A stretch of DNA of 63,428 bases, from the NCBI RefSeq assembly GCF_024223415.1, contig NZ_CP100504.1, one strand, 5' to 3'. A program made the position numbers and the translations under genes. The notes below the pieces were generated by a model. It did no database searches, had not been told where the DNA came from, and saw nothing but the letters and a program-made list of their open reading frames with translations. This DNA is from Escherichia coli. GTDB lineage: Bacteria > Pseudomonadota > Gammaproteobacteria > Enterobacterales > Enterobacteriaceae. Shown piece after piece: positions 12,325 to 58,244 of this stretch (position 1 is its first letter; the number at the start of each line of letters is the position of its first letter).

Positions 12325-12514
12325 TACAGGGGCAGGCGGTGGAGGCCGCCTGTCAGCCCGCGCGAAAACCCCTGGCAGGCTGACGCCTGCCGGAAGGGAA
12401 GCGGGCCACGCTGGCGCGTCGCCCGTTACCCTTCCCGTCTGTGATGTGTCTGACTCAGGAGTGTTTCTTTCTTATGTTATGGAACTGTTCCTGATGTTGT
12501 TGTTCCTTTATCTG

Positions 12515-13125
12515 CTGCTCTGATTCTGACTACTGCAGTGTTGTTCTGTCTGCCGGGCGCACCTTCGGCTCCCGGCTGCCTGGCGGCATCCGGTCGTCAG
12601 GCCCGACTCCGACAGGCAGCTGCTGGCGCACCCGCCAGTCTCCGCCGAACCCGCTGGCGCGGTTTCGGGCTGTCGCTACGGTCCGATGCGTGAAAACCCC
12701 GGGCTTGCAGCGACCGTTCCGGTCGCGCCGCCTCTGTCGCGCCGTGGCCTGCGCTCCAGGCATCCCGGCAAAAAGACGCCGGGATGTAAGGCGCAACGCC
12801 GTTTCGCAAACCGCGCTTCACGTCGTTGCTGCGGGTCCCTGCTCATTGCCTGCCGGGTGCCACACACCCGTATGAGTCCCTGTCGCCGGGGGCATAGACA
12901 GCCACAACCTGCCGCACTGACTGTCCAGGGTAAATGAACAGCCCACAAAATTTTTTACCCAAAACCCGGTAAAAAATTTTGCGTTCTGCCCAGGACAGGT
13001 GCGTCAGGCCGTGGCAGTGATGCCCCTTGCGGCGAAGGTTCTCAAACGGGTGAAGTTCATACCACAGGGAATACAGCAGCAGGTTCCCGCGAAACGTCAA
13101 AACTGCGGCTCCCGAAACTCAACGG
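12515..13125. repeat. leading-region ~620-bp direct repeat, copy 1 (Frpo/ssi-like)
   Basis: Near-identical by eye to 15867-16496 and 21269-21897; GC-rich with internal hairpins such as aaaattttttacc-(9 nt)-ggtaaaaaatttt. Confidence 0.85.
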
Positions 13126-13363
13126 GTGATGTTCTTTAAAAATCAGGATTTATTTCAGGCTCCGGCAATACGCATTTATGTGTTCTGTCAGTCATCCGGC
13201 TGGCAGGTAATGAGAACGCAGGAACAGAAGGAGGAAAACACCGGAGAACGTCAGACGCAGATATGAAAAAAGCAGGTCAGGGACCTGCTTAATCCACGCC
13301 GTAAGAATTGCGCAACCAATTTTGACGGCATTGTTAACCAATTTGTCATAAGGAGTTTCATTT

Positions 13364-13594
13364 ATGACGGTAAGTATTGTTTCACCTTCCGCAGCGGCTG
13401 TAAAGCCCCGCCGTCATCCCCGTTTCAGACGCGAAGACATCCCCGCGCCGGAAATTGACCCCGTGCTGAAAGCCTTCGGGCGACACATAGCCCGGAGTTT
13501 TCACCGGGGGCGTGGTGTACACATCCCCGCCATGAAAAACACGGCCTTCGGGCAGGTGCTCCGCACACTCGAACTGAAACGCGCTTTTAACTGA
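13364..13594 (+). CDS. small basic hypothetical protein
   Basis: 76-aa ORF with RBS aggag 8 nt upstream; first ORF downstream of repeat copy 1. Confidence 0.4.
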   Translation: MTVSIVSPSAAAVKPRRHPRFRREDIPAPEIDPVLKAFGRHIARSFHRGRGVHIPAMKNTAFGQVLRTLELKRAFN

Positions 13595-15053: not shown

Positions 15054-15617
15054 ATGCACAGTCAGTTAAGAGAACGTATCCGGCTGATGCGCGCAAGGCT
15101 GGATAACGCCGCGCCGGTTGCTGAAATCCGGGCTGAATCTCAGCTTTTTGTGACTCCTGCCCCGGTCTGTGATCGCCTGGTGACGCTGGCGGAAATCAGC
15201 AACCGTGATCACATTCTGGAACCCTCTGCCGGCACCGGGGCCATACTGCTGGCGATTCGGGATACCGCGCCGGAGGCCATGTGTGATGCGGTGGAGATTA
15301 ACAGCGGGCTGGTCCGGTATCTGCGGGAAAATTTTAACGGTGTCAGGGTACAGTGTGGCGACTTCATGGAATGGCAGCCGGTGCAGTATTACAGCCGGAT
15401 CATTATGAATCCGCCGTTCAGTCACGGGCAGGATATCCGGCATATCCTGCGGGCTTTTTCCCTGTTGCGTCCGGGGGGCGTTCTGGTTGCCGTCTGTCTC
15501 AACGGGCCGCGCCAGCAGGAGAAGCTGTTACCGTTTTCTGACGTCCGCGAGGAGCTGCCGCGCGGCACGTTTGCTTATACCGATGTCCCGACGATGATTA
15601 TTCGTTTGCGTGCCTGA
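15054..15617 (+). CDS. orphan SAM-dependent DNA methyltransferase (amino-MTase, NPPF motif)
   Basis: 187 aa with a SAM-binding-like segment (ILEPSAGTGAILLAI) and catalytic motif IIMNPPF; no adjacent restriction endonuclease. Confidence 0.75.
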   Translation: MHSQLRERIRLMRARLDNAAPVAEIRAESQLFVTPAPVCDRLVTLAEISNRDHILEPSAGTGAILLAIRDTAPEAMCDAVEINSGLVRYLRENFNGVRVQCGDFMEWQPVQYYSRIIMNPPFSHGQDIRHILRAFSLLRPGGVLVAVCLNGPRQQEKLLPFSDVREELPRGTFAYTDVPTMIIRLRA

Positions 15618-15796
15618 TGACACAGGGCTGGCGGGAGGATAAATGCCCGTCTGTCCGCGCCGGGAAAAGACCGCGCGCCGGTGGCGCTGAAAGGGGCCGC
15701 GCTCACGCGCCGCCCCTTTCATTACGCGGACGTTCTGATGGGGGCTTCTGTCTTTTCAGACCTGTCATTTGTCTGTTACTGATGATGTTGTTGTTC

Positions 15797-15855
15797 CTGC
15801 TACTGCTACTGCTACTGCTACTGCTACTGCTACTGCTACTGCTACTGCTACTGCT
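15797..15855. repeat. hexanucleotide tandem repeat (CTGCTA)n, about 10 units
   Basis: ctgcta repeated in tandem immediately 5' of repeat copy 2; copies 1 and 3 have only a short unrepeated ctgct(g)ctc stretch at the equivalent position. Confidence 0.9.
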
Positions 15856-15866
15856 CTTCTTTTTCC

Positions 15867-16496
15867 TGCTGCTCTGATTCTGACTACTGCAGTGTTGTTC
15901 TGTCTGCCGGGCGCACCTTCGGCTCCCGGCTGCCTGGCGGCATCCGGTCGTCAGGCCCGACTCCGACAGGCAGCTGCTGGCGCACCTGCCAGTCTCCGCC
16001 GAACCCGCTGGCGCGGTTTCGGGCTGCCGCTACGGTCCGATGCGTGAAAACCCGGCTTGCAGCGACCGTTCCGGTCGCGCCGCCCCTGTCGCGCCGTGAC
16101 CTGCGCTCCAGGCATCCCGGCAAAAAGACGCCGGGATGTAAGGCGCAACGCCGTTTCGCAAACCGCGCTTCACGTCGTTGCGGCGGGTCCCTGCCCGTTG
16201 TTGTGTCCGGTGCCATTCACCTGTTTAAGCCCCTGTCGCCGGGGGCTGATACAGCCACAACCTGCCGCACTGACTGTCCAGGGTAAATGAACAGCCCACA
16301 AAATTTTTTACCCAAAACCCGGTAAAAAATTTTGCGTTCTGCCCAGGACAGGTGCGTCAGGCCGTGGCAGTGATGCCCCATGCGGCGAAGGTTCTCAAAC
16401 AGGTGATGGTGAATACCGGAGGGAACAAAGAGCAGGTCCCCGCAAAACGTCAAAACCGCGGCTCCCGAAACTCAACAGATGATGGGGGCTGAAAAC
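15867..16496. repeat. leading-region ~620-bp direct repeat, copy 2 (Frpo/ssi-like)
   Basis: Near-identical to copies 1 and 3; ends about 20 bp upstream of ssb. Confidence 0.85.
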
Positions 16497-16517
16497 ATCA
16501 ACAGAAGGAGACACATC

Positions 16518-17045
16518 ATGGCAGTTCGTGGCATTAACAAGGTCATTCTTGTCGGTCGTCTGGGAAAAGATCCGGAAGTCCGTTACATCCCAAACGGGGG
16601 CGCAGTGGCAAACCTGCAGGTGGCCACGTCAGAAAGCTGGCGCGACAAACAGACGGGGGAGATACGGGAGCAGACAGAATGGCATCGCGTGGTGCTGTTC
16701 GGCAAGCTCGCGGAAGTGGCTGGTGAGTATCTGCGCAAGGGCGCGCAGGTCTACATCGAAGGTCAGCTTCGCACCCGTAGCTGGGAGGATAACGGTATCA
16801 CCCGTTACGTCACCGAAATTCTTGTTAAGACCACGGGCACCATGCAGATGCTGGGACGTGCCGCAGGTACTCAGACTCAGCCGGAAGAGGCGCAACAGTT
16901 CAGCGGTCAGCCTCAGCCGGAATCACAGCCGGAACCGAAAAAAGGAGGCGCGAAAACGAAAGGCCGTGGACGTAAGGCCGCGCAGCCGGAGCCTCAGCAG
17001 CCGTCTGAACCCGCGTATGACTTCGATGACGACATTCCGTTCTAA
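16518..17045 (+). CDS. ssb: plasmid single-stranded DNA-binding protein
   Basis: Starts [23 protein letters not shown] (OB-fold SSB); Gln/Pro-rich tail ending DFDDDIPF; RBS aggaga. Confidence 0.9.
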
Positions 17046-17058
17046 CGAAAGACAGTGA

Positions 17059-20997: not shown

Positions 20998-21268
20998 CAA
21001 CCTGGAGGCGGGCGCAGGCCCGCCTTTTCAGGACTGATGCTGGTCTGACTACTGAAGCGCCTTTATAAAGGGGCTGCTGGTTCGCCGGTAGCCCCTTTCT
21101 CCTTGCTGATGTTGTACGGGCATGAACAACCTGACTTCAGGAAGGTCGTTTCCCTTCAGGAACGGGGATGAACGCGCGCCTGCGGCGCCCGTTCTTTTCC
21201 CCCGCCTTCTCTGGTTATGGCCTGTCAGAAATCACATCACCTTCCCTGTGATTATTCTCTTTTTCTTC

Positions 21269-21897
21269 CTGCTCTGATTCTGACTACTGCAGTGTTGTCC
21301 TGTCTGCCGGCGCACCTTCGGCTCCCGGCTGCCTGGCGGCATCCGGTCGTCAGGCCCGACTCCGACAGGCAGCTGCTGGCGCACCTGCCAGTCTCCGCCG
21401 AACCCGCTGGCGCGGTTTCGGGCTGTCGCTACGGTCCGATGCGTGAAAACCCCGGGCTTGCAGCGACCGTTCCGGTCGCGCCGCCTCTGTCGCGCCGTGG
21501 CCTGCGCTCCAGGCATCCCGGCAAAAAGACGCCGGGATGTAAGGCGCAACGCCGTTTCGCAAACCGCGCTTCACGTCGTTGCGGCGGGTCCCTGCCCGTT
21601 GTTGTGTCCGGTGCCATTCACCTGTTTAAGCCCCTGTCGCCGGGGGCTGATACAGCCACAACCTGCCGCACTGACTGTCCAGGGTAAATGAACAGCCCAC
21701 AAAATTTTTTACCCAAAACCCGGTAAAAAATTTTGCGTTCTGCCCAGGACAGGTGCGTCAGGCCGTGGCAGTGATGCCCCTTGCGGCGAAGGTTCTCAAA
21801 CAGGTGATGGTGAATACCGGAGGGAACAAAGAGCAGGTCCCCGCAAAACGTCAAAACCGCGGCTCCCGAAACTCAACAGATGATGGGGGCTGAAAAC
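21269..21897. repeat. leading-region ~620-bp direct repeat, copy 3 (Frpo/ssi-like)
   Basis: Near-identical to copies 1 and 2; ends about 20 bp upstream of the ORF at 21918. Confidence 0.85.
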
Positions 21898-21917
21898 CAG
21901 AGAGAGGAGAAAGCTGG

Positions 21918-23949: not shown

Positions 23950-24364
23950 TTTTCCACCTCTGGTGACTTTATCCGTAAATAATTTAACCCACTCCACAAA
24001 AAGGCTCAACAGGTTGGTGGTTCTCACCACCAAAAGCACCACACCCCACGCAAAAACAAGTTTTTGCTGATTTACGTTTTAAATCATGTAATTAACAAAT
24101 GCTATTTATATTTAATTATTCTGAATTATTAAATAGAGAGTCGTTGGCGATCCTGTTACGACCCTATAGCGACCCTTATTAGGATCAGTACTGACAATTT
24201 TCATGAAAAACATTGATATATATTAGGGGCACCCCTAGCGCCGGATCGCATTTTTTTATAGGATAATCCTAGAGGCGCTACTAGGAGTGTCTTTCTTACT
24301 TGTAAACACTATATTCATATTTATACTGAAAAGTTCATTGCTTAATGATGAAAGGTTTTATTTT
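23950..24364. other. oriT (origin of transfer) with F-type nic site
   Basis: Minus strand reads gcaaaaacttgtttttgcgtggggtgt/ggtgcttttggtggtgagaaccacc, matching the F oriT nick region; nick falls between 24039 and 24040 on the minus strand; AT-rich region upstream of traM. Confidence 0.8.
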
Positions 24365-24809: not shown

Positions 24810-24910
24810 CAATTAACCACATAAAGGTTATATTAATTATGTGGTTAATGCCACGTTAAAAATTTAGTTTGAATCGCCAATGCAGGGAGTAGCACCTCCC
24901 TGCATTGACT
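24810..24910 (-). ncRNA. finP: FinP antisense RNA (approximate)
   Basis: Two inverted repeats in the traJ leader (ttaaccacat...atgtggttaa; tgcagggag-tagcac-ctccctgca) just upstream of the traJ RBS. Confidence 0.5.
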
Positions 24911-24938
24911 GTCCATAGAATCCTTTGAGGAGGTTCCT

Positions 24939-25590
24939 ATGTGTGCAATGGATCGTAGAGAAAGAGCACTCATTCGTCAATTACATTTCCCTAACGACTT
25001 AAGAGAGAACATTTCATTATTGAAATATCCCGTATGTATACGTTTTGAAGACGGTTCTTTTATAGGAACAAATCACAGCTTCGAGCGATTTATTAAATTA
25101 TCATATTGTTCATGTGATGAATGGTTTGAGCATTTGACTTTAGAATCCAAGTTACAACTATCAAGATCTGAGATGGATTCATATTTTTCAACTTATGGTG
25201 TAAGTTATATTAATAATGTTTCAATTAGTGCTATGTCATGGAGCATGGTTATCGAAACACTCAATACAAATGAAGGTTGTTTTTTCGTCTGGCGATTTAT
25301 TGAGTCAAATGACAAAAATATTTCAACATCTTTGATTTCTAAATCTAATGATGGGTTGATATTTTTTCTGGGGAATATATAGATATTGAACCCTATCTTG
25401 TAGGGTTTAGCCATTATTATTCTGCAGCAGTGACAAAAATTAGTATATCTAAATCCAAGAAGAAAACGATGAATTTTTTCAAAATGAATGGGTTTAGTTC
25501 CAGAGATCACTGGTTGGATGAAATGCTCAGGTCTGAAAAAATACTATTTCTATATGATAGAGTAAAAGGAATATTAAAAAACAAGTGTTA
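24939..25590 (+). pseudogene. traJ: transfer activator TraJ, apparent frameshift
   Basis: 147-aa ORF stops at 25382, but the +2 frame is open from 25350 to 25590; the frame change coincides with a T6 run (25363-25368); combined length ~215 aa. Confidence 0.55.
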
Positions 25591-50785: not shown

Positions 50786-52777
50786 ATGAGTTTTAACGCA
50801 AAGGATATGACCCAGGGCGGTCAGATTGCGTCCATGCGTATCCGCATGTTCAGCCAGATCGCCAATATCATGCTTTACTGCCTGTTTATTTTTTTCTGGA
50901 TACTCGTTGGTCTGATTTTATGGGTAAAAATAAGCTGGCAGACGTTTGTGAACGGCTGTATTTACTGGTGGTGTACCACGCTGGAAGGCATGCGGGATTT
51001 AATCAAGTCCCAGCCAGTATATGAGATTCAGTATTACGGCAAAACCTTCCGGATGAACTCTGCCCAGGTACTGCATGATAAATATATGATCTGGTGCGGT
51101 GAGCAGCTATGGTCCGCATTCGTTCTGGCGTCTGTCGTGGCCCTGGTTATTTGCCTGATCACCTTCTTTGTTGTCTCCTGGATTCTGGGGCGTCAGGGTA
51201 AACAACAGAGCGAAAATGAAGTCACAGGTGGTCGTCAGCTGACAGACAATCCGAAAGACGTTGCCCGGATGCTGAAAAAAGACGGCAAGGACTCCGATAT
51301 CCGGATTGGCGACCTGCCGATTATCCGGGATTCCGAAATCCAGAACTTCTGTCTGCACGGCACGGTCGGGGCCGGTAAGTCGGAGGTTATCCGTCGTCTG
51401 GCCAACTACGCCCGTCAGCGCGGTGATATGGTGGTGATTTATGACCGTTCAGGGGAATTTGTTAAAAGTTACTATGATCCCTCCATCGATAAAATCCTGA
51501 ATCCGCTGGATGCCCGCTGTGCCGCATGGGATTTGTGGAAGGAGTGTCTGACACAGCCGGATTTTGATAATACCGCAAATACTCTGATCCCTATGGGTAC
51601 AAAAGAGGACCCGTTCTGGCAGGGTTCAGGACGTACCATTTTTGCGGAAGCGGCGTACCTGATGCGTAATGACCCCAACCGCAGCTACAGCAAACTGGTG
51701 GACACACTGCTTTCCATCAAAATCGAAAAACTGCGTACCTTCCTGCGTAATTCTCCGGCGGCCAACCTGGTGGAAGAGAAAATTGAGAAAACGGCGATTT
51801 CCATCCGTGCTGTGCTGACCAACTACGTGAAAGCCATCCGTTACCTGCAGGGGATTGAGCATAACGGTGAGCCCTTCACCATACGTGACTGGATGCGTGG
51901 TGTCCGGGAAGATCAGAAAAACGGCTGGCTGTTTATTTCGTCGAACGCCGACACCCATGCCTCCCTGAAGCCGGTGATCTCCATGTGGCTGTCCATTGCC
52001 ATTCGTGGTCTGCTGGCAATGGGAGAAAACCGTAACCGTCGTGTGTGGTTTTTCTGTGATGAGTTACCCACGTTACACAAACTGCCGGACCTGGTGGAGA
52101 TCCTGCCGGAAGCCCGTAAGTTCGGTGGCTGTTATGTGTTTGGTATCCAGTCCTATGCCCAGCTGGAAGATATCTACGGTGAGAAAGCGGCGGCCACGCT
52201 GTTTGACGTCATGAACACCCGTGCTTTTTTCCGTTCCCCGAGCCATAAGATTGCAGAGTTCGCTGCCGGTGAGATTGGTGAGAAAGAGCACCTGAAAGCC
52301 AGCGAGCAGTATTCCTACGGTGCTGACCCGGTACGTGACGGGGTATCGACCGGTAAGGATATGGAGCGTCAGACGCTGGTCAGTTATTCCGACATTCAGT
52401 CTCTGCCGGATCTGACCTGCTATGTCACTCTGCCCGGACCGTATCCGGCAGTAAAACTCTCCCTGAAATATCAGGCACGACCGAAGGTCGCTCCGGAGTT
52501 TATTCCGCGTGACATCAACCCGGAAATGGAGAACCGTCTGAGTGCCGTACTTGCCGCAAGGGAAGCAGAAGGTCGTCAGATGGCCAGCCTCTTTGAACCG
52601 GAGGTTGCCTCCGGAGAAGATGTGACTCAGGCTGAACAGCCACAACAGCCACAACAGCCACAACAGCCACAACAGCCACAACAGCCACAACAGCCGGTGT
52701 CTCCTGCCATCAACGATAAGAAGTCAGATTCAGGTGTGAATGTTCCGGCAGGGGGATCGAGCAGGAGCTGGAAATGA
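50786..52777 (+). CDS. traD: type IV coupling protein TraD
   Basis: 663 aa with N-terminal TM segments, Walker A GTVGAGKS and a C-terminal QPQ repeat tail. Confidence 0.95.
52637..52690. repeat. 9-bp tandem repeat (cagccacaa)n inside traD
   Basis: About six tandem units encoding the (QPQ)n tract in the TraD C-terminal tail. Confidence 0.9.
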
Positions 52778-52974: not shown

Positions 52975-55900
52975 TGATGAGTATCGCGCAGGTCAGATCG
53001 GCCGGAAGTGCCGGTAACTATTATACCGACAAGGATAATTACTATGTACTGGGCAGCATGGGAGAACGCTGGGCCGGCAGGGGGGCTGAACAGCTGGGAC
53101 TGCAGGGCAGTGTCGATAAGGATGTTTTTACCCGTCTTCTGGAGGGAAGGCTGCCGGACGGAGCGGATCTAAGCCGCATGCAGGATGGCAGTAATAAGCA
53201 TCGTCCCGGCTACGACCTGACCTTCTCCGCCCCCAAAAGTGTCTCCATGATGGCCATGCTCGGGGGGGACAAACGTCTTATTGAAGCACATAACCAGGCC
53301 GTGGACTTTGCTGTTCGTCAGGTGGAGGCGCTGGCCTCCACACGGGTGATGACGGACGGACAGTCAGAAACGGTACTGACCGGTAATCTGGTGATGGCAC
53401 TGTTTAACCACGACACCAGTCGCGATCAGGAACCACAGTTACATACGCATGCGGTGGTGGCTAATGTCACGCAGCATAACGGTGAGTGGAAGACACTGAG
53501 CAGTGACAAAGTGGGGAAAACGGGGTTCATTGAGAATGTGTACGCTAATCAGATTGCCTTTGGCAGGCTCTACCGGGAAAAACTGAAAGAGCAGGTTGAG
53601 GCGCTGGGCTATGAAACCGAAGTGGTGGGTAAGCACGGTATGTGGGAGATGCCGGGCGTACCGGTGGAGGCCTTTTCCGGACGCTCACAGACTATCCGGG
53701 AGGCCGTCGGGGAAGATGCCTCGCTGAAATCCCGGGATGTGGCGGCACTGGATACGCGAAAATCCAAACAGCACGTCGATCCTGAAGTCAGAATGGCTGA
53801 ATGGATGCAGACGCTGAAGGAAACCGGGTTCGACATCCGGGCATATCGTGACGCGGTGGATCAGCGTGCGGAGACCCGCACGCAGGCGCCCGGGGCTGTT
53901 TCACAGGAGGGGCCGGATGTGCAGCAGGCGGTGACACAGGCGATTGCCGGATTAAGTGAACGAAAAATGCAGTTTACGTACACGGACGTGCTGGCCAGAA
54001 CGGTCGGTATACTGCCGCCGGAAAATGGTGTGATTGAACGGGCACGCGCCGGTATCGATGAGGCCATCAGTCGTGAGCAGCTTATCCCCCTCGACCGTGA
54101 GAAGGGGCTGTTCACATCAGGAATTCATGTGCTCGATGAGCTGTCCGTCCGGGCACTCAGTCGTGACATCATGAAACAGAACCGGGTGACCGTACATCTG
54201 GAGAAAAGTGTCCCCCGGACGGCTGGTTACAGCGATGCGGTCAGTGTTCTGGCACAGGACCGTCCGTCGCTGGCCATTGTGTCCGGGCAGGGCGGTGCAG
54301 CCGGGCAGCGTGAGCGGGTGGCTGAACTGGTCATGATGGCCCGGGAGCAGGGGCGGGAGGTGCAGATTATCGCCGCTGACCGTCGCTCGCAGATGAACCT
54401 GAAGCAGGATGAACGGCTGTCCGGTGAGCTGATAACCGGACGTCGTCAGCTGCAGGAGGGCATGGCCTTCACGCCGGGCAGTACTGTTATCGTCGACCAG
54501 GGCGAAAAACTCTCCCTGAAAGAGACGTTAACCCTGCTGGACGGTGCCGCACGTCATAACGTACAGGTCCTGATAACCGACAGCGGGCAGCGAACCGGTA
54601 CAGGCAGTGCACTGATGGCCATGAAGGATGCCGGGGTGAACACGTATCGCTGGCAGGGCGGAGAACAGCGACCGGCCACCATCATCAGTGAACCGGACCG
54701 GAATGTCCGCTATGACCGGCTGGCCGGAGATTTTGCGGCCAGCGTGAAAGCCGGAGAAGAGAGCGTGGCACAGGTCAGCGGGGTACGGGAACAGGCCATA
54801 CTGACACAGGCCATTCGCAGTGAGCTGAAAACACAGGGCGTGCTCGGACACCCGGAGGTGACCATGACGGCACTGTCACCGGTCTGGCTGGACAGCCGGA
54901 GCCGTTATCTGCGGGATATGTACCGACCGGGGATGGTGATGGAGCAGTGGAACCCGGAGACACGCAGTCATGACCGCTATGTTATCGACCGGGTGACGGC
55001 GCAGAGTCACAGCCTGACCCTGCGGGATGCGCAGGGCGAAACGCAGGTGGTGCGTATTTCCTCCCTGGACAGCAGCTGGTCGCTGTTCCGGCCGGAAAAA
55101 ATGCCGGTGGCAGACGGCGAGCGACTGAGGGTGACAGGGAAAATTCCCGGACTCCGCGTCTCCGGCGGTGACCGCCTGCAGGTGGCATCCGTCAGTGAAG
55201 ATGCGATGACGGTTGTTGTGCCGGGGCGGGCTGAACCGGCCACCCTGCCTGTGGCTGATTCACCGTTCACGGCACTGAAGCTGGAGAACGGCTGGGTGGA
55301 AACGCCCGGGCATTCCGTCAGCGACAGTGCGAAGGTTTTTGCCTCCGTCACACAGATGGCAATGGACAACGCCACCCTGAACGGTCTGGCCCGCAGTGGT
55401 CGTGATGTCCGGCTGTATTCTTCACTGGATGAAACCCGTACTGCGGAAAAACTTGCCCGCCATCCCTCCTTTACGGTGGTTTCTGAGCAGATAAAGGCGC
55501 GTGCCGGTGAGACATTGCTGGAAACCGCTATCAGTCTGCAGAAAGCCGGGCTTCACACGCCGGCACAGCAGGCTATTCATCTGGCCCTTCCTGTGCTGGA
55601 AAGTAAAAACCTGGCCTTCAGCATGGTGGACCTGCTGACAGAGGCGAAGTCGTTTGCTGCAGAAGGAACCAGTTTTACTGAACTGGGAGGGGAAATCAAT
55701 GCGCAGATAAAACGCGGTGATTTACTGTATGTGGATGTGGCAAAAGGCTATGGCACAGGCCTGCTGGTTTCCCGTGCGTCGTATGAGGCAGAAAAGAGCA
55801 TTCTTCGCCATATTCTCGAAGGTAAGGAGGCGGTCACGCCGCTGATGGAGAGAGTACCTGGCGAACTCATGGAGAAACTGACATCAGGACAGCGTGCCGC

Positions 55901-58244
55901 CACCCGCATGATACTGGAAACGTCCGACCGTTTCACGGTGGTGCAGGGCTATGCCGGTGTGGGTAAGACCACACAGTTCCGGGCGGTGATGTCAGCCGTG
56001 AACATGCTGCCGGAGAGTGAGCGTCCCCGTGTCGTTGGGCTGGGTCCCACGCACCGCGCGGTCGGGGAGATGCGCAGCGCCGGCGTGGATGCACAGACAC
56101 TGGCGTCCTTTCTGCATGACACGCAGCTGCAGCAGCGCAGCGGAGAAACGCCGGATTTCAGCAACACGCTGTTCCTGCTCGATGAGAGCTCAATGGTGGG
56201 CAATACCGACATGGCACGGGCATACGCCCTGATTGCGGCCGGTGGCGGTCGTGCTGTGGCCAGCGGTGACACGGACCAGCTGCAGGCCATCGCGCCCGGT
56301 CAGCCTTTCCGTCTCCAGCAGACGCGCAGTGCTGCCGATGTGGTCATCATGAAGGAGATTGTGCGTCAGACGCCGGAACTGCGGGAGGCGGTATACAGCC
56401 TGATTAACCGGGATGTGGAAAGGGCACTGTCCGGGCTTGAGAGTGTGAAACCGTCTCAGGTTCCCCGTCAGGAGGGCGCATGGGCACCGGAGCACTCCGT
56501 GACGGAGTTCAGTCACAGCCAGGAAGCGAAACTGGCAGAAGCGCAGCAGAAGGCGATGCTGAAAGGCGAGGCTTTCCCGGATATCCCCATGACACTGTAT
56601 GAAGCCATTGTCCGCGACTATACCGGCAGGACACCGGAAGCACGGGAGCAGACGCTGATTGTCACACACCTGAATGAGGACCGGCGCGTACTGAACAGCA
56701 TGATTCATGATGCACGGGAAAAGGCCGGTGAGCTGGGCAAAGAGCAGGTCATGGTGCCTGTCCTGAACACAGCGAATATACGTGACGGAGAACTGCGTCG
56801 TCTCTCCACCTGGGAGAATAACCCGGATGCCCTTGCCCTGGTGGATAGTGTGTATCACCGGATTGCCGGTATCAGCAAGGATGACGGGCTGATAACCCTG
56901 GAGGATGCGGAAGGTAACACGCGGCTGATTTCGCCCCGGGAGGCGGTGGCTGAAGGCGTCACACTGTACACCCCGGACACCATCCGGGTGGGAACCGGTG
57001 ACCGGATGCGCTTCACGAAGAGTGACCGGGAGCGCGGTTATGTGGCCAACAGCGTCTGGACGGTGACAGCGGTTTCCGGTGACAGTGTCACGCTGTCGGA
57101 CGGACAGCAGACCCGGGTGATTCGCCCCGGTCAGGAGCGGGCAGAGCAACATATTGACCTGGCTTATGCCATCACCGCCCACGGTGCGCAGGGGGCAAGT
57201 GAAACCTTTGCCATCGCGCTTGAAGGCACGGAAGGTAACCGGAAACTGATGGCAGGCTTTGAGTCAGCTTATGTAGCCCTGTCGCGTATGAAGCAGCATG
57301 TGCAGGTGTACACCGATAACCGTCAGGGCTGGACGGATGCCATCAACAATGCCGTACAGAAAGGAACTGCCCACGATGTGTTTGAACCGAAACCGGACCG
57401 GGAGGTCATGAATGCAGAGCGGCTGTTCAGTACGGCGCGGGAGCTGCGGGACGTGGCGGCAGGCCGTGCCGTTCTTCGTCAGGCGGGACTTGCCGGGGGA
57501 GACAGTCCTGCACGGTTTATTGCTCCGGGACGTAAATATCCGCAACCGTATGTGGCACTGCCGGCTTTTGACCGTAACGGCAGGTCCGCCGGTATCTGGC
57601 TGAACCCGCTGACCACGGATGACGGAAACGGGCTGCGGGGATTCAGCGGTGAAGGCCGGGTGAAAGGCAGCGGGGATGCACAGTTTGTGGCCCTGCAGGG
57701 CAGCCGTAACGGAGAGAGCCTGCTGGCTGATAATATGCAGGATGGTGTCCGGATTGCCCGTGATAATCCTGACAGCGGTGTGGTGGTGAGAATCGCCGGT
57801 GAAGGCCGTCCGTGGAATCCCGGTGCCATCACCGGTGGTCGCGTGTGGGGGGATATCCCGGACAACAGCGTCCAGCCGGGGGCCGGAAATGGTGAACCGG
57901 TTACAGCTGAAGTGCTGGCACAGCGGCAGGCTGAAGAGGCCATCCGCCGTGAAACGGAACGTCGCGCAGATGAAATTGTCCGTAAAATGGCAGAGAACAA
58001 ACCTGACCTGCCGGATGGCAGAACAGAGCAGGCTGTCAGGGAGATTGCCGGGCAGGAGCGTGACCGGGCTGCCATAACTGAACGGGAAGCCGCGCTGCCG
58101 GAGAGTGTGCTGCGTGAATCACAACGGGAGCGGGAAGCGGTCCGGGAGGTTGCCCGGGAAAATCTGCTGCAGGAGCGTCTGCAGCAGATGGAGCGGGATA
58201 TGGTCCGTGACCTGCAGAAAGAGAAAACCCTGGGCGGAGACTGA
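52974..58244 (+). CDS. traI: relaxase/helicase TraI
   Basis: 1756 aa starting [27 protein letters not shown] (relaxase domain) followed by helicase motifs. Confidence 0.95.
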   Translation: MMSIAQVRSAGSAGNYYTDKDNYYVLGSMGERWAGRGAEQLGLQGSVDKDVFTRLLEGRLPDGADLSRMQDGSNKHRPGYDLTFSAPKSVSMMAMLGGDKRLIEAHNQAVDFAVRQVEALASTRVMTDGQSETVLTGNLVMALFNHDTSRDQEPQLHTHAVVANVTQHNGEWKTLSSDKVGKTGFIENVYANQIAFGRLYREKLKEQVEALGYETEVVGKHGMWEMPGVPVEAFSGRSQTIREAVGEDASLKSRDVAALDTRKSKQHVDPEVRMAEWMQTLKETGFDIRAYRDAVDQRAETRTQAPGAVSQEGPDVQQAVTQAIAGLSERKMQFTYTDVLARTVGILPPENGVIERARAGIDEAISREQLIPLDREKGLFTSGIHVLDELSVRALSRDIMKQNRVTVHLEKSVPRTAGYSDAVSVLAQDRPSLAIVSGQGGAAGQRERVAELVMMAREQGREVQIIAADRRSQMNLKQDERLSGELITGRRQLQEGMAFTPGSTVIVDQGEKLSLKETLTLLDGAARHNVQVLITDSGQRTGTGSALMAMKDAGVNTYRWQGGEQRPATIISEPDRNVRYDRLAGDFAASVKAGEESVAQVSGVREQAILTQAIRSELKTQGVLGHPEVTMTALSPVWLDSRSRYLRDMYRPGMVMEQWNPETRSHDRYVIDRVTAQSHSLTLRDAQGETQVVRISSLDSSWSLFRPEKMPVADGERLRVTGKIPGLRVSGGDRLQVASVSEDAMTVVVPGRAEPATLPVADSPFTALKLENGWVETPGHSVSDSAKVFASVTQMAMDNATLNGLARSGRDVRLYSSLDETRTAEKLARHPSFTVVSEQIKARAGETLLETAISLQKAGLHTPAQQAIHLALPVLESKNLAFSMVDLLTEAKSFAAEGTSFTELGGEINAQIKRGDLLYVDVAKGYGTGLLVSRASYEAEKSILRHILEGKEAVTPLMERVPGELMEKLTSGQRAATRMILETSDRFTVVQGYAGVGKTTQFRAVMSAVNMLPESERPRVVGLGPTHRAVGEMRSAGVDAQTLASFLHDTQLQQRSGETPDFSNTLFLLDESSMVGNTDMARAYALIAAGGGRAVASGDTDQLQAIAPGQPFRLQQTRSAADVVIMKEIVRQTPELREAVYSLINRDVERALSGLESVKPSQVPRQEGAWAPEHSVTEFSHSQEAKLAEAQQKAMLKGEAFPDIPMTLYEAIVRDYTGRTPEAREQTLIVTHLNEDRRVLNSMIHDAREKAGELGKEQVMVPVLNTANIRDGELRRLSTWENNPDALALVDSVYHRIAGISKDDGLITLEDAEGNTRLISPREAVAEGVTLYTPDTIRVGTGDRMRFTKSDRERGYVANSVWTVTAVSGDSVTLSDGQQTRVIRPGQERAEQHIDLAYAITAHGAQGASETFAIALEGTEGNRKLMAGFESAYVALSRMKQHVQVYTDNRQGWTDAINNAVQKGTAHDVFEPKPDREVMNAERLFSTARELRDVAAGRAVLRQAGLAGGDSPARFIAPGRKYPQPYVALPAFDRNGRSAGIWLNPLTTDDGNGLRGFSGEGRVKGSGDAQFVALQGSRNGESLLADNMQDGVRIARDNPDSGVVVRIAGEGRPWNPGAITGGRVWGDIPDNSVQPGAGNGEPVTAEVLAQRQAEEAIRRETERRADEIVRKMAENKPDLPDGRTEQAVREIAGQERDRAAITEREAALPESVLRESQREREAVREVARENLLQERLQQMERDMVRDLQKEKTLGGD

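Follow-up and report, generated by a model that had tools for sequence, protein, structure and literature searches.

The MLVA locus VNTR-37 (O157-37) belongs to the typing scheme of Keys (2005) and Hyytia-Trees (2006) for Escherichia coli O157:H7. It is a 6-bp repeat on pO157, described as lying inside ORF L7083; its 11 alleles span 3 to 17 repeats (diversity index 0.82), and its primers, adapted from Hyytia-Trees 2006, are in print (PMC3321953). In serial passage, O157-37 changes by whole units at about 4.3e-5 per generation (PMC3777172). STTR10pl is a plasmid-borne MLVA locus of Salmonella Typhimurium, carried on pSLT. On the F plasmid, the regions upstream of ssb and ygeA are Frpo2 and Frpo1, respectively, ssDNA promoters that drive early expression of leading genes; Frpo2 has been found experimentally to drive, and to be required for, early ssb/psiB expression from ssDNA (PMC9849209). 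Both have been assigned to class 1 (PMC12672017), and for modules of this family it is the F members alone whose ssDNA-promoter activity is known (PMC9849209).

We present here the analysis of a tandem repeat in a 63,428-nt stretch of Escherichia coli plasmid DNA (contig NZ_CP100504.1), referred to below as the window. The array occupies positions 15797..15855 and is a perfect (CTGCTA)n repeat, with nine CTGCTA units followed by CTGCT (Tandem Repeats Finder: period 6, 9.8 copies, 100% matches, 0 indels, score 118). Fifty-three consecutive bases equal the base six positions upstream, an agreement expected by chance at about 1e-32 per position. The array is the orthologue of VNTR-37/O157-37, a long-established typing locus, and as such was already known. 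We consider it probably a functionally neutral VNTR that is driven by slippage and lies in an unconstrained spacer.

Directly 5′ of the array are the micro-repeats (ATG)2(TTG)2TTC (15779..15796), delimited by parsing 117 loci. On its 3′ side the rest of a pyrimidine-rich, A-poor tract follows, TTCTTTTTCCTGCTGCTCTGATTCTGACTACTGCAGTGTTGTTC (15856..15899), which alignments show to be common to copies 1 and 3 of a repeat module described below and to form the 5′ edge of that module. The base counts for 15773-15900 are T 53, C 35, G 24 and A 16. Within the 63-kb window, the CTGCTA array is among the two strongest tandem arrays found by Tandem Repeats Finder. A second perfect array, (AACAGCCAC)x6.8, lies at 52635-52695, in frame near the 3′ end of a 663-aa ORF (50786..52777); its Gln/Pro-rich reading is probably the QQP-type repeat of the TraD C terminus.

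The window contains the leading region of an IncF-type conjugative plasmid. Positions 15400-16600 match more than 5000 PLSDB records and are 100% identical to E. coli plasmid pGZM7d. The nic motif GTGGGGTGTGGTGCTTTTG, which we take to be the F oriT sequence, has an exact match on the − strand at 24031..24049, and an Rfam search places the traJ 5′UTR/FinP at 24839-24945, which fixes the orientation of the nic site. The − strand is thus the transferred strand; it reads the array as (TAGCAG)n and serves as the template of the leading genes. The array lies about 8.2 kb from nic, within the leading region.

Upstream of the array are a gene for a DUF3560 protein and then a class I SAM-dependent methyltransferase gene (15054..15617, + strand; Pfam MTS/Methyltransf_25 and the PGAP annotation of an identical record), whose 3′ flank holds the VNTR. 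Between this gene and the array's tract stands a GC-rich, terminator-like hairpin (15688..15721, + strand; RNA fold −40.1 kcal/mol, z −3.4), which is kept over 68 upstream haplotypes, even where the upstream gene differs. Downstream, annotation and Pfam give the order ssb, ParB-like gene, psiB and psiA. The plasmid single-stranded-DNA-binding protein gene ssb (16518..17045, + strand) is the first gene after repeat copy 2, according to the PGAP annotation of the 100% identical record NZ_CP129283. A 176-aa ORF with a GTG start that overlaps ssb in another frame (16528-17058) was rejected; it has no Pfam match, and the identical record's annotation gives the real ssb as 16518-17045. No Rfam family covers the array, and the search of 11-27 kb returned only traJ_5/FinP, sok and AS-pc01, all elsewhere. 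The AS-pc01 match (an antisense RNA to pHK01_035) is at 13267-13369 on the − strand, scoring 86.7 bits against a gathering score of 79; it lies just downstream of repeat copy 1 and is antisense to the start of a 76-aa ORF (13364..13594).

Several features link the array to VNTR-37. The two have the 6-nt unit and its phase in common, VNTR-37 likewise lies upstream of ssb and varies in length by whole units, and the gene order DUF3560-methyltransferase-array-ssb is found in both pO157 and the window. The left flank of VNTR-37 also consists of the methyltransferase 3′ end, the hairpin and CCTGTCATTTGTCTGTTACTGATGATGTTGTTGTTC, and aligns base for base with the window. The pO157 locus differs in its first unit, which is ATGCTA, and in its right flank, which represents another module variant (CTGATTACTGTCTGTTTTG...). 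In three pO157 records, exact matches to the published VNTR-37 primers stand on both sides of the array; these records have 8, 7 and 6 units and yield amplicons of 190, 184 and 178 bp, respectively. An Argentine pO157 record in our set carries 6 units, the commonest O157-37 allele of Argentine studies. When the primers were scanned against a PLSDB record that is 100% identical to the window here, the forward site had 2 mismatches and no reverse-primer site was present within 4 substitutions, since the right flank is a different module variant. Standard VNTR-37 PCR would therefore be expected to fail, or to give a null allele, on the window plasmid. A literature search on the repeat sequence itself returned only unrelated eukaryotic matches. 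The repeat is an ordinary feature, a VNTR that is already in the standard MLVA scheme for E. coli O157:H7. The marker reaches well beyond pO157, to thousands of IncF plasmids, whose flanks would often defeat the standard primers.

Unit number was compared across relatives of the locus, as the initial annotation of the window had proposed, and invariance clearly fails. Eight related PLSDB loci have 1, 2, 4, 4, 7, 8, 9 and 10 units, and span differences among full-length matches in two database searches are multiples of 3. Arrays could be pulled from PLSDB/RefSeq IncF records with the anchor sequence CCTGTCATTTGTCTGTTACTGATG, and when metagenome contigs were searched with a 24-nt anchor from the left flank, at least 120 loci were found. 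Among the matches listed, 117 complete metagenomic arrays have 1 to 12 units, with a roughly flat distribution from 1 to 7, on at least 8 right-flank haplotypes; the 9 units of the window fall in the upper 6% of this distribution. In the same 117 loci listed, most E. coli arrays end 3′ in the variant unit CTGTTC, and the micro-repeats 5′ of the array vary (ATG x1-2, TTG x0-4). Wherever relatives differ in length, they do so by whole units or by 3-nt steps in the micro-repeats. Seven groups of loci have identical flanks (300+300 nt), and in six of these the arrays differ in unit number (7/9, 8/12, 2/10, 7/8, 3/7 and 5/6); the seventh group consists of the window and its own identical database record. 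The array consequently changes, always by whole units, far faster than point substitutions accumulate.

Whole-unit changes in the array, together with the varying micro-repeats, are the signature of replication slippage. The array had been called a slippage-prone microsatellite, a description that agrees both with the metagenomic loci and with the published data on the orthologue, in which the range of unit numbers (PMC3321953) and the whole-unit changes per generation (PMC3777172) have been determined. Single-unit alleles occur in plasmids typed as conjugative (e.g., locus L004), so the expansion is dispensable. Length differences at the array are to be expected between otherwise identical plasmids or assemblies. 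At about 16066-16070, copy 2 is 2 nt shorter than copies 1 and 3 (CCCCGGGC versus CCC--GGC), an indel that also explains why some near-identical plasmids differ in length by +2.

On some contigs the left flank and array are found twice. In L080 the anchors of the two CTGCTA arrays are 3334 nt apart, in a tandem duplication of the DUF3560-methyltransferase block. In L024 and L077, a second left flank and array are present downstream of psiA, at the Frpo1 position, and in L077 a remnant of the methyltransferase 3′ end stands before this second copy. Array and methyltransferase 3′ flank thus travel together.

Two spurious ORFs are predicted across the array on the + strand. One, of 86 aa (15617..15877), ends in poly-Leu derived from the array; the other, of 92 aa with a TTG start (15769..16047), reads poly(Ala-Thr). 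The initial annotation had dismissed both as artefacts of the repeat, one poly-Leu and one poly-Ala; the dismissal is upheld by start loss, stops or frameshifts and the absence of Pfam matches, and only the composition of the second ORF has to be corrected. A coding repeat would make the array the Leu-rich core of a small hydrophobic peptide, MMLLF(LL)nLLFFFLLL-stop, or the C terminus of the 86-aa ORF, coupled to the methyltransferase stop. The CTG frame is indeed hydrophobic through the array, and the same TGA ends all three copies and the pO157-type flank. ORFs are also annotated over the array both by PGAP and in EDL933 (ORF L7083, PMC3321953), and among the matches listed nearly all indels in 117 loci are multiples of 3. 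Coding constraint would give this last pattern, and so would slippage of 3- and 6-nt units, which explains it fully. The annotated strand differs between records, the pO157 records placing a − strand ORF across the array instead, and a Pfam search of the two PGAP hypothetical proteins across the array gave no matches. No Shine-Dalgarno sequence precedes the internal ATG ATG, and the 86-aa ORF runs across the terminator-like hairpin. Over the 68 upstream haplotypes, its ATG is AAG in many, the frame is broken upstream by stops or shifts in others, and amino-acid replacements are common. Frameshifted alleles (L033, L064) and alleles that lack the TGA also occur, and neither stop nor frame is conserved in pSLT. 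The poly-Leu frame was therefore rejected as a gene after translation in 133 loci (68 upstream haplotypes), which showed lost starts, stops, frameshifts and replacements, with no Pfam match. We give a coding role almost no credence, and the hypothetical proteins annotated across the array, where every allele receives its own accession, are noise.

The array lies at one of three copies of a direct repeat of about 660 bp in the window. Copy 1 (12484..13146, + strand) is upstream of the DUF3560-methyltransferase operon, copy 2 (15838..16499, + strand) is recognized by repeat search and F homology, and copy 3 (21237..21900, + strand) is at the Frpo1-type position, upstream of a 95-aa ORF and a DUF932 gene. 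Repeat search and alignments place the array at the 5′ end of copy 2 and find it absent from copies 1 and 3, in accord with the copy-specific expansion proposed by the initial annotation. In copy 1 the alignment reveals an empty site, TGATGTTGTTGTTC joined to CTTTAT-CTGCTGCTC, and copy 3 becomes homologous only from TCTTTTTCTTCCTGCTC onward, on the right-hand side of the array. On the left, copies 1 and 2 remain homologous for about 14 nt beyond the array. The expansion said to precede copy 2 is real but thus lies just inside the edge of the repeat rather than outside it.

Copy 2 is the homologue of F Frpo2 and, as judged by its sequence, a putative class-1 ssDNA promoter upstream of ssb. By blastn, positions 16043-16520 are 93.9% identical to the F plasmid over the 478 nt upstream of ssb, and 88.9% identical upstream of ygeA. 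The claim that the array adjoins a regulatory element upstream of ssb-psiB is thereby substantiated. The − (transferred) strand is predicted to form a long imperfect Frpo-type hairpin at 16161..16471 (DNA fold, z −10.7), upstream of the + strand gene ssb, which uses the transferred strand as template. The module shares its homology, its transferred-strand hairpin and its place upstream of ssb with the class-1 promoters Frpo1 and Frpo2 of F and ssi1-3 of ColIb-P9. The array itself, in contrast, lies outside the promoter, with about 300 nt between it and the downstream hairpin; the centroid structure of the − strand DNA fold leaves it unpaired, and it is missing in two of the three copies. In simulations with n = 0 to 25 units, the predicted promoter hairpin was identical and the total energy shifted by less than 7 of about 229 kcal/mol. 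The array was therefore rejected as a structural part of the promoter hairpin. In another plasmid (L138; CP122888.1, 2452-4563), the 5′ part of a Frpo-type module is replaced by unrelated sequence, and a group II intron reverse transcriptase gene lies about 600 nt upstream; this module looks like one truncated by an insertion.

Given its place beside a Frpo2-type module, the array might act as a tunable regulatory spacer, with unit number modulating early (zygotic) ssb-psiB expression. It could do so through the distance or insulation between the terminator and the Frpo2-type promoter, or by giving the transferred strand an unstructured, purine-rich landing tract. The array belongs to a module with 94% identity to F Frpo2 in its 3′ half, and early ssb/psiB expression needs Frpo2 (PMC9849209); the tract is low in complexity and, in the predicted fold, unstructured on the transferred strand; and repeat expansions recur at it in pSLT and F. 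Yet deletion of the whole of Frpo2 did not lower conjugation efficiency in the laboratory (PMC9849209). The distance to the hairpin also places the array outside any transcript starting there, and the predicted hairpin does not respond to unit number. Among the loci listed, alleles of 1 to 12 units are evenly spread over haplotypes, and conjugative plasmids carry single-unit alleles. Furthermore, pO157 varies at this locus and is not known to be conjugative, so that there would be no zygotic induction there to tune. On this evidence we consider a tuning role unlikely.

Other regulatory readings were also rejected. No sigma-70-like promoter was found in 15400-16700, which removes a dsDNA promoter with repeat-tuned spacing. 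The array resembles the contingency loci of Haemophilus and Neisseria (phase-variable repeats) in being a perfect, hypermutable simple-sequence repeat, but it is neither in a conserved ORF nor between promoter hexamers, and no on/off switch can be inferred from it. A phase-variable contingency locus was discarded on these grounds, namely the absence of promoter-like sites in 15400-16700, the unconserved ORFs and a 6-nt unit that keeps the reading frame. The CTG triplets were considered as DnaG primase sites; they occur on the + (retained) strand only, the transferred strand (TAGCAG) has none, and no scenario needs priming there.

A neutral, slippage-driven VNTR accommodates these observations. 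The array would have originated from a short proto-repeat (TTC CTG CTA CTG TTC) in the pyrimidine-rich, low-complexity tract, and whole 6-nt units would then have been gained and lost by strand slippage in replication. The spacer in which this is proposed to occur would be non-coding, extending from the terminator-like hairpin of the methyltransferase operon to the Frpo2-type ssDNA promoter module upstream of ssb. Its length and sequence are apparently unconstrained, so that plasmids identical in other respects carry alleles ranging from 1 unit to at least 12 (17 in pO157).

Tandem repeats recur at the same tract in other plasmids. In Salmonella pSLT (NC_003277, record positions about 53705-53765; L134 4706-4766), a perfect (CCTGTT)x10.2 array is found at the homologous tract upstream of ssbB, and the published STTR10pl primers match its flanks exactly, giving a 371-bp amplicon. 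STTR10pl is, like the window array, a perfect hexamer array; it lies some 630 nt before ssbB, where a homologous Frpo-type module has its 5′ edge. When aligned, the two arrays stay in register and share CTG, and the STTR10pl unit, CTGTTC, is also the variant with which most E. coli arrays end on the 3′ side. The Salmonella locus differs in having the unit CCTGTT/CTGTTC rather than CTGCTA, in its upstream gene (PSLT064) and in its reported amplicons of 358-496 bp, which imply much longer alleles. E. coli O157 and S. Typhimurium therefore have their plasmid-borne MLVA loci at one and the same site. In the F plasmid (NC_002483, record positions about 58015-58061; L135 8016-8062), the same tract upstream of Frpo2/ssb contains an imperfect TTC/CTC array (period 9 x 5.2, 86% matches). 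Its left flank resembles that of copy 1 in the window, which indicates that recombination has shuffled the modules. Two metagenome contigs (L016 8901-8951 and L018 10058-10108) carry an 18-nt unit, CTGCTCTGACTCTGATTA, duplicated 2-3 times; it lies within the pyrimidine tract of a Frpo1-type (copy 3-type) module, at the module's 5′ edge.

The different arrays in pSLT, F and E. coli mean that the tract has given rise to tandem repeats more than once, though not universally. Modules of copy 1 type and copy 3 type were unexpanded, both in the window and in the four other IncF plasmids compared, and a hot spot at every Frpo-type copy was therefore rejected. The claim is accordingly limited to the ssb-proximal tract and one 18-mer duplication at a Frpo1-type site. 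Recurrence in the tract could reflect selection for a long unstructured spacer, beyond mutational bias alone.

A functionless array might also owe its origin and instability to structure, through replication stalling at the adjacent GC-rich ssDNA-promoter hairpins, either in complementary-strand synthesis in the recipient or in lagging-strand synthesis, with the nascent 3′ end realigning in the low-complexity tract. This would fit the finding that three lineages have different arrays in one tract upstream of ssb, and also the 18-mer duplication at the Frpo1-type site. The predicted fold and the orientation of nic are also consistent with it, as complementary-strand synthesis runs in the + direction, through the tract into the hairpins. 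A replication stall has been mapped exactly at the base of the stem of ssp2, a leading-region ssDNA promoter (preprint 10.64898/2026.01.09.698686), which suggests by analogy that adjacent hairpins could promote slippage at the array. The roadblock was reported at ssp2, however, and not at the Frpo-type ssp1 promoters (10.64898/2026.01.09.698686), and VNTR-37 mutates in serial passage without conjugation (PMC3777172). Modules of copy 1 and copy 3 type have the same hairpins and, as noted above, no arrays. The changes of VNTR-37 in serial passage, on a plasmid that is itself not known to be conjugative, weaken the case for conjugation-specific instability. We regard stalling as the cause as very unlikely, and prefer slippage in an unconstrained spacer.

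A broader proposal is that the tract is a conserved generator of tandem repeats, with VNTR-37, STTR10pl and the TTC/CTC array of F as one orthologous locus with turnover of units. Its instability would come from stalling at the transferred-strand hairpins, including during complementary-strand synthesis in the recipient, or else the unstructured tract would have been selected as an insulator of the promoter fold. We offer this as a speculative and rather unlikely proposal. The mildly new point of the present comparison is that VNTR-37 and STTR10pl hold equivalent positions, each bordering the ssb-proximal, Frpo2-type ssDNA promoter; our search found no literature linking these MLVA loci to Frpo. 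If the adjacent hairpins do cause the instability, the clocks of these typing markers would be linked to plasmid biology. Were the broader proposal true, allele changes at both plasmid MLVA markers would in part count transfer or stalling events and not cell generations.
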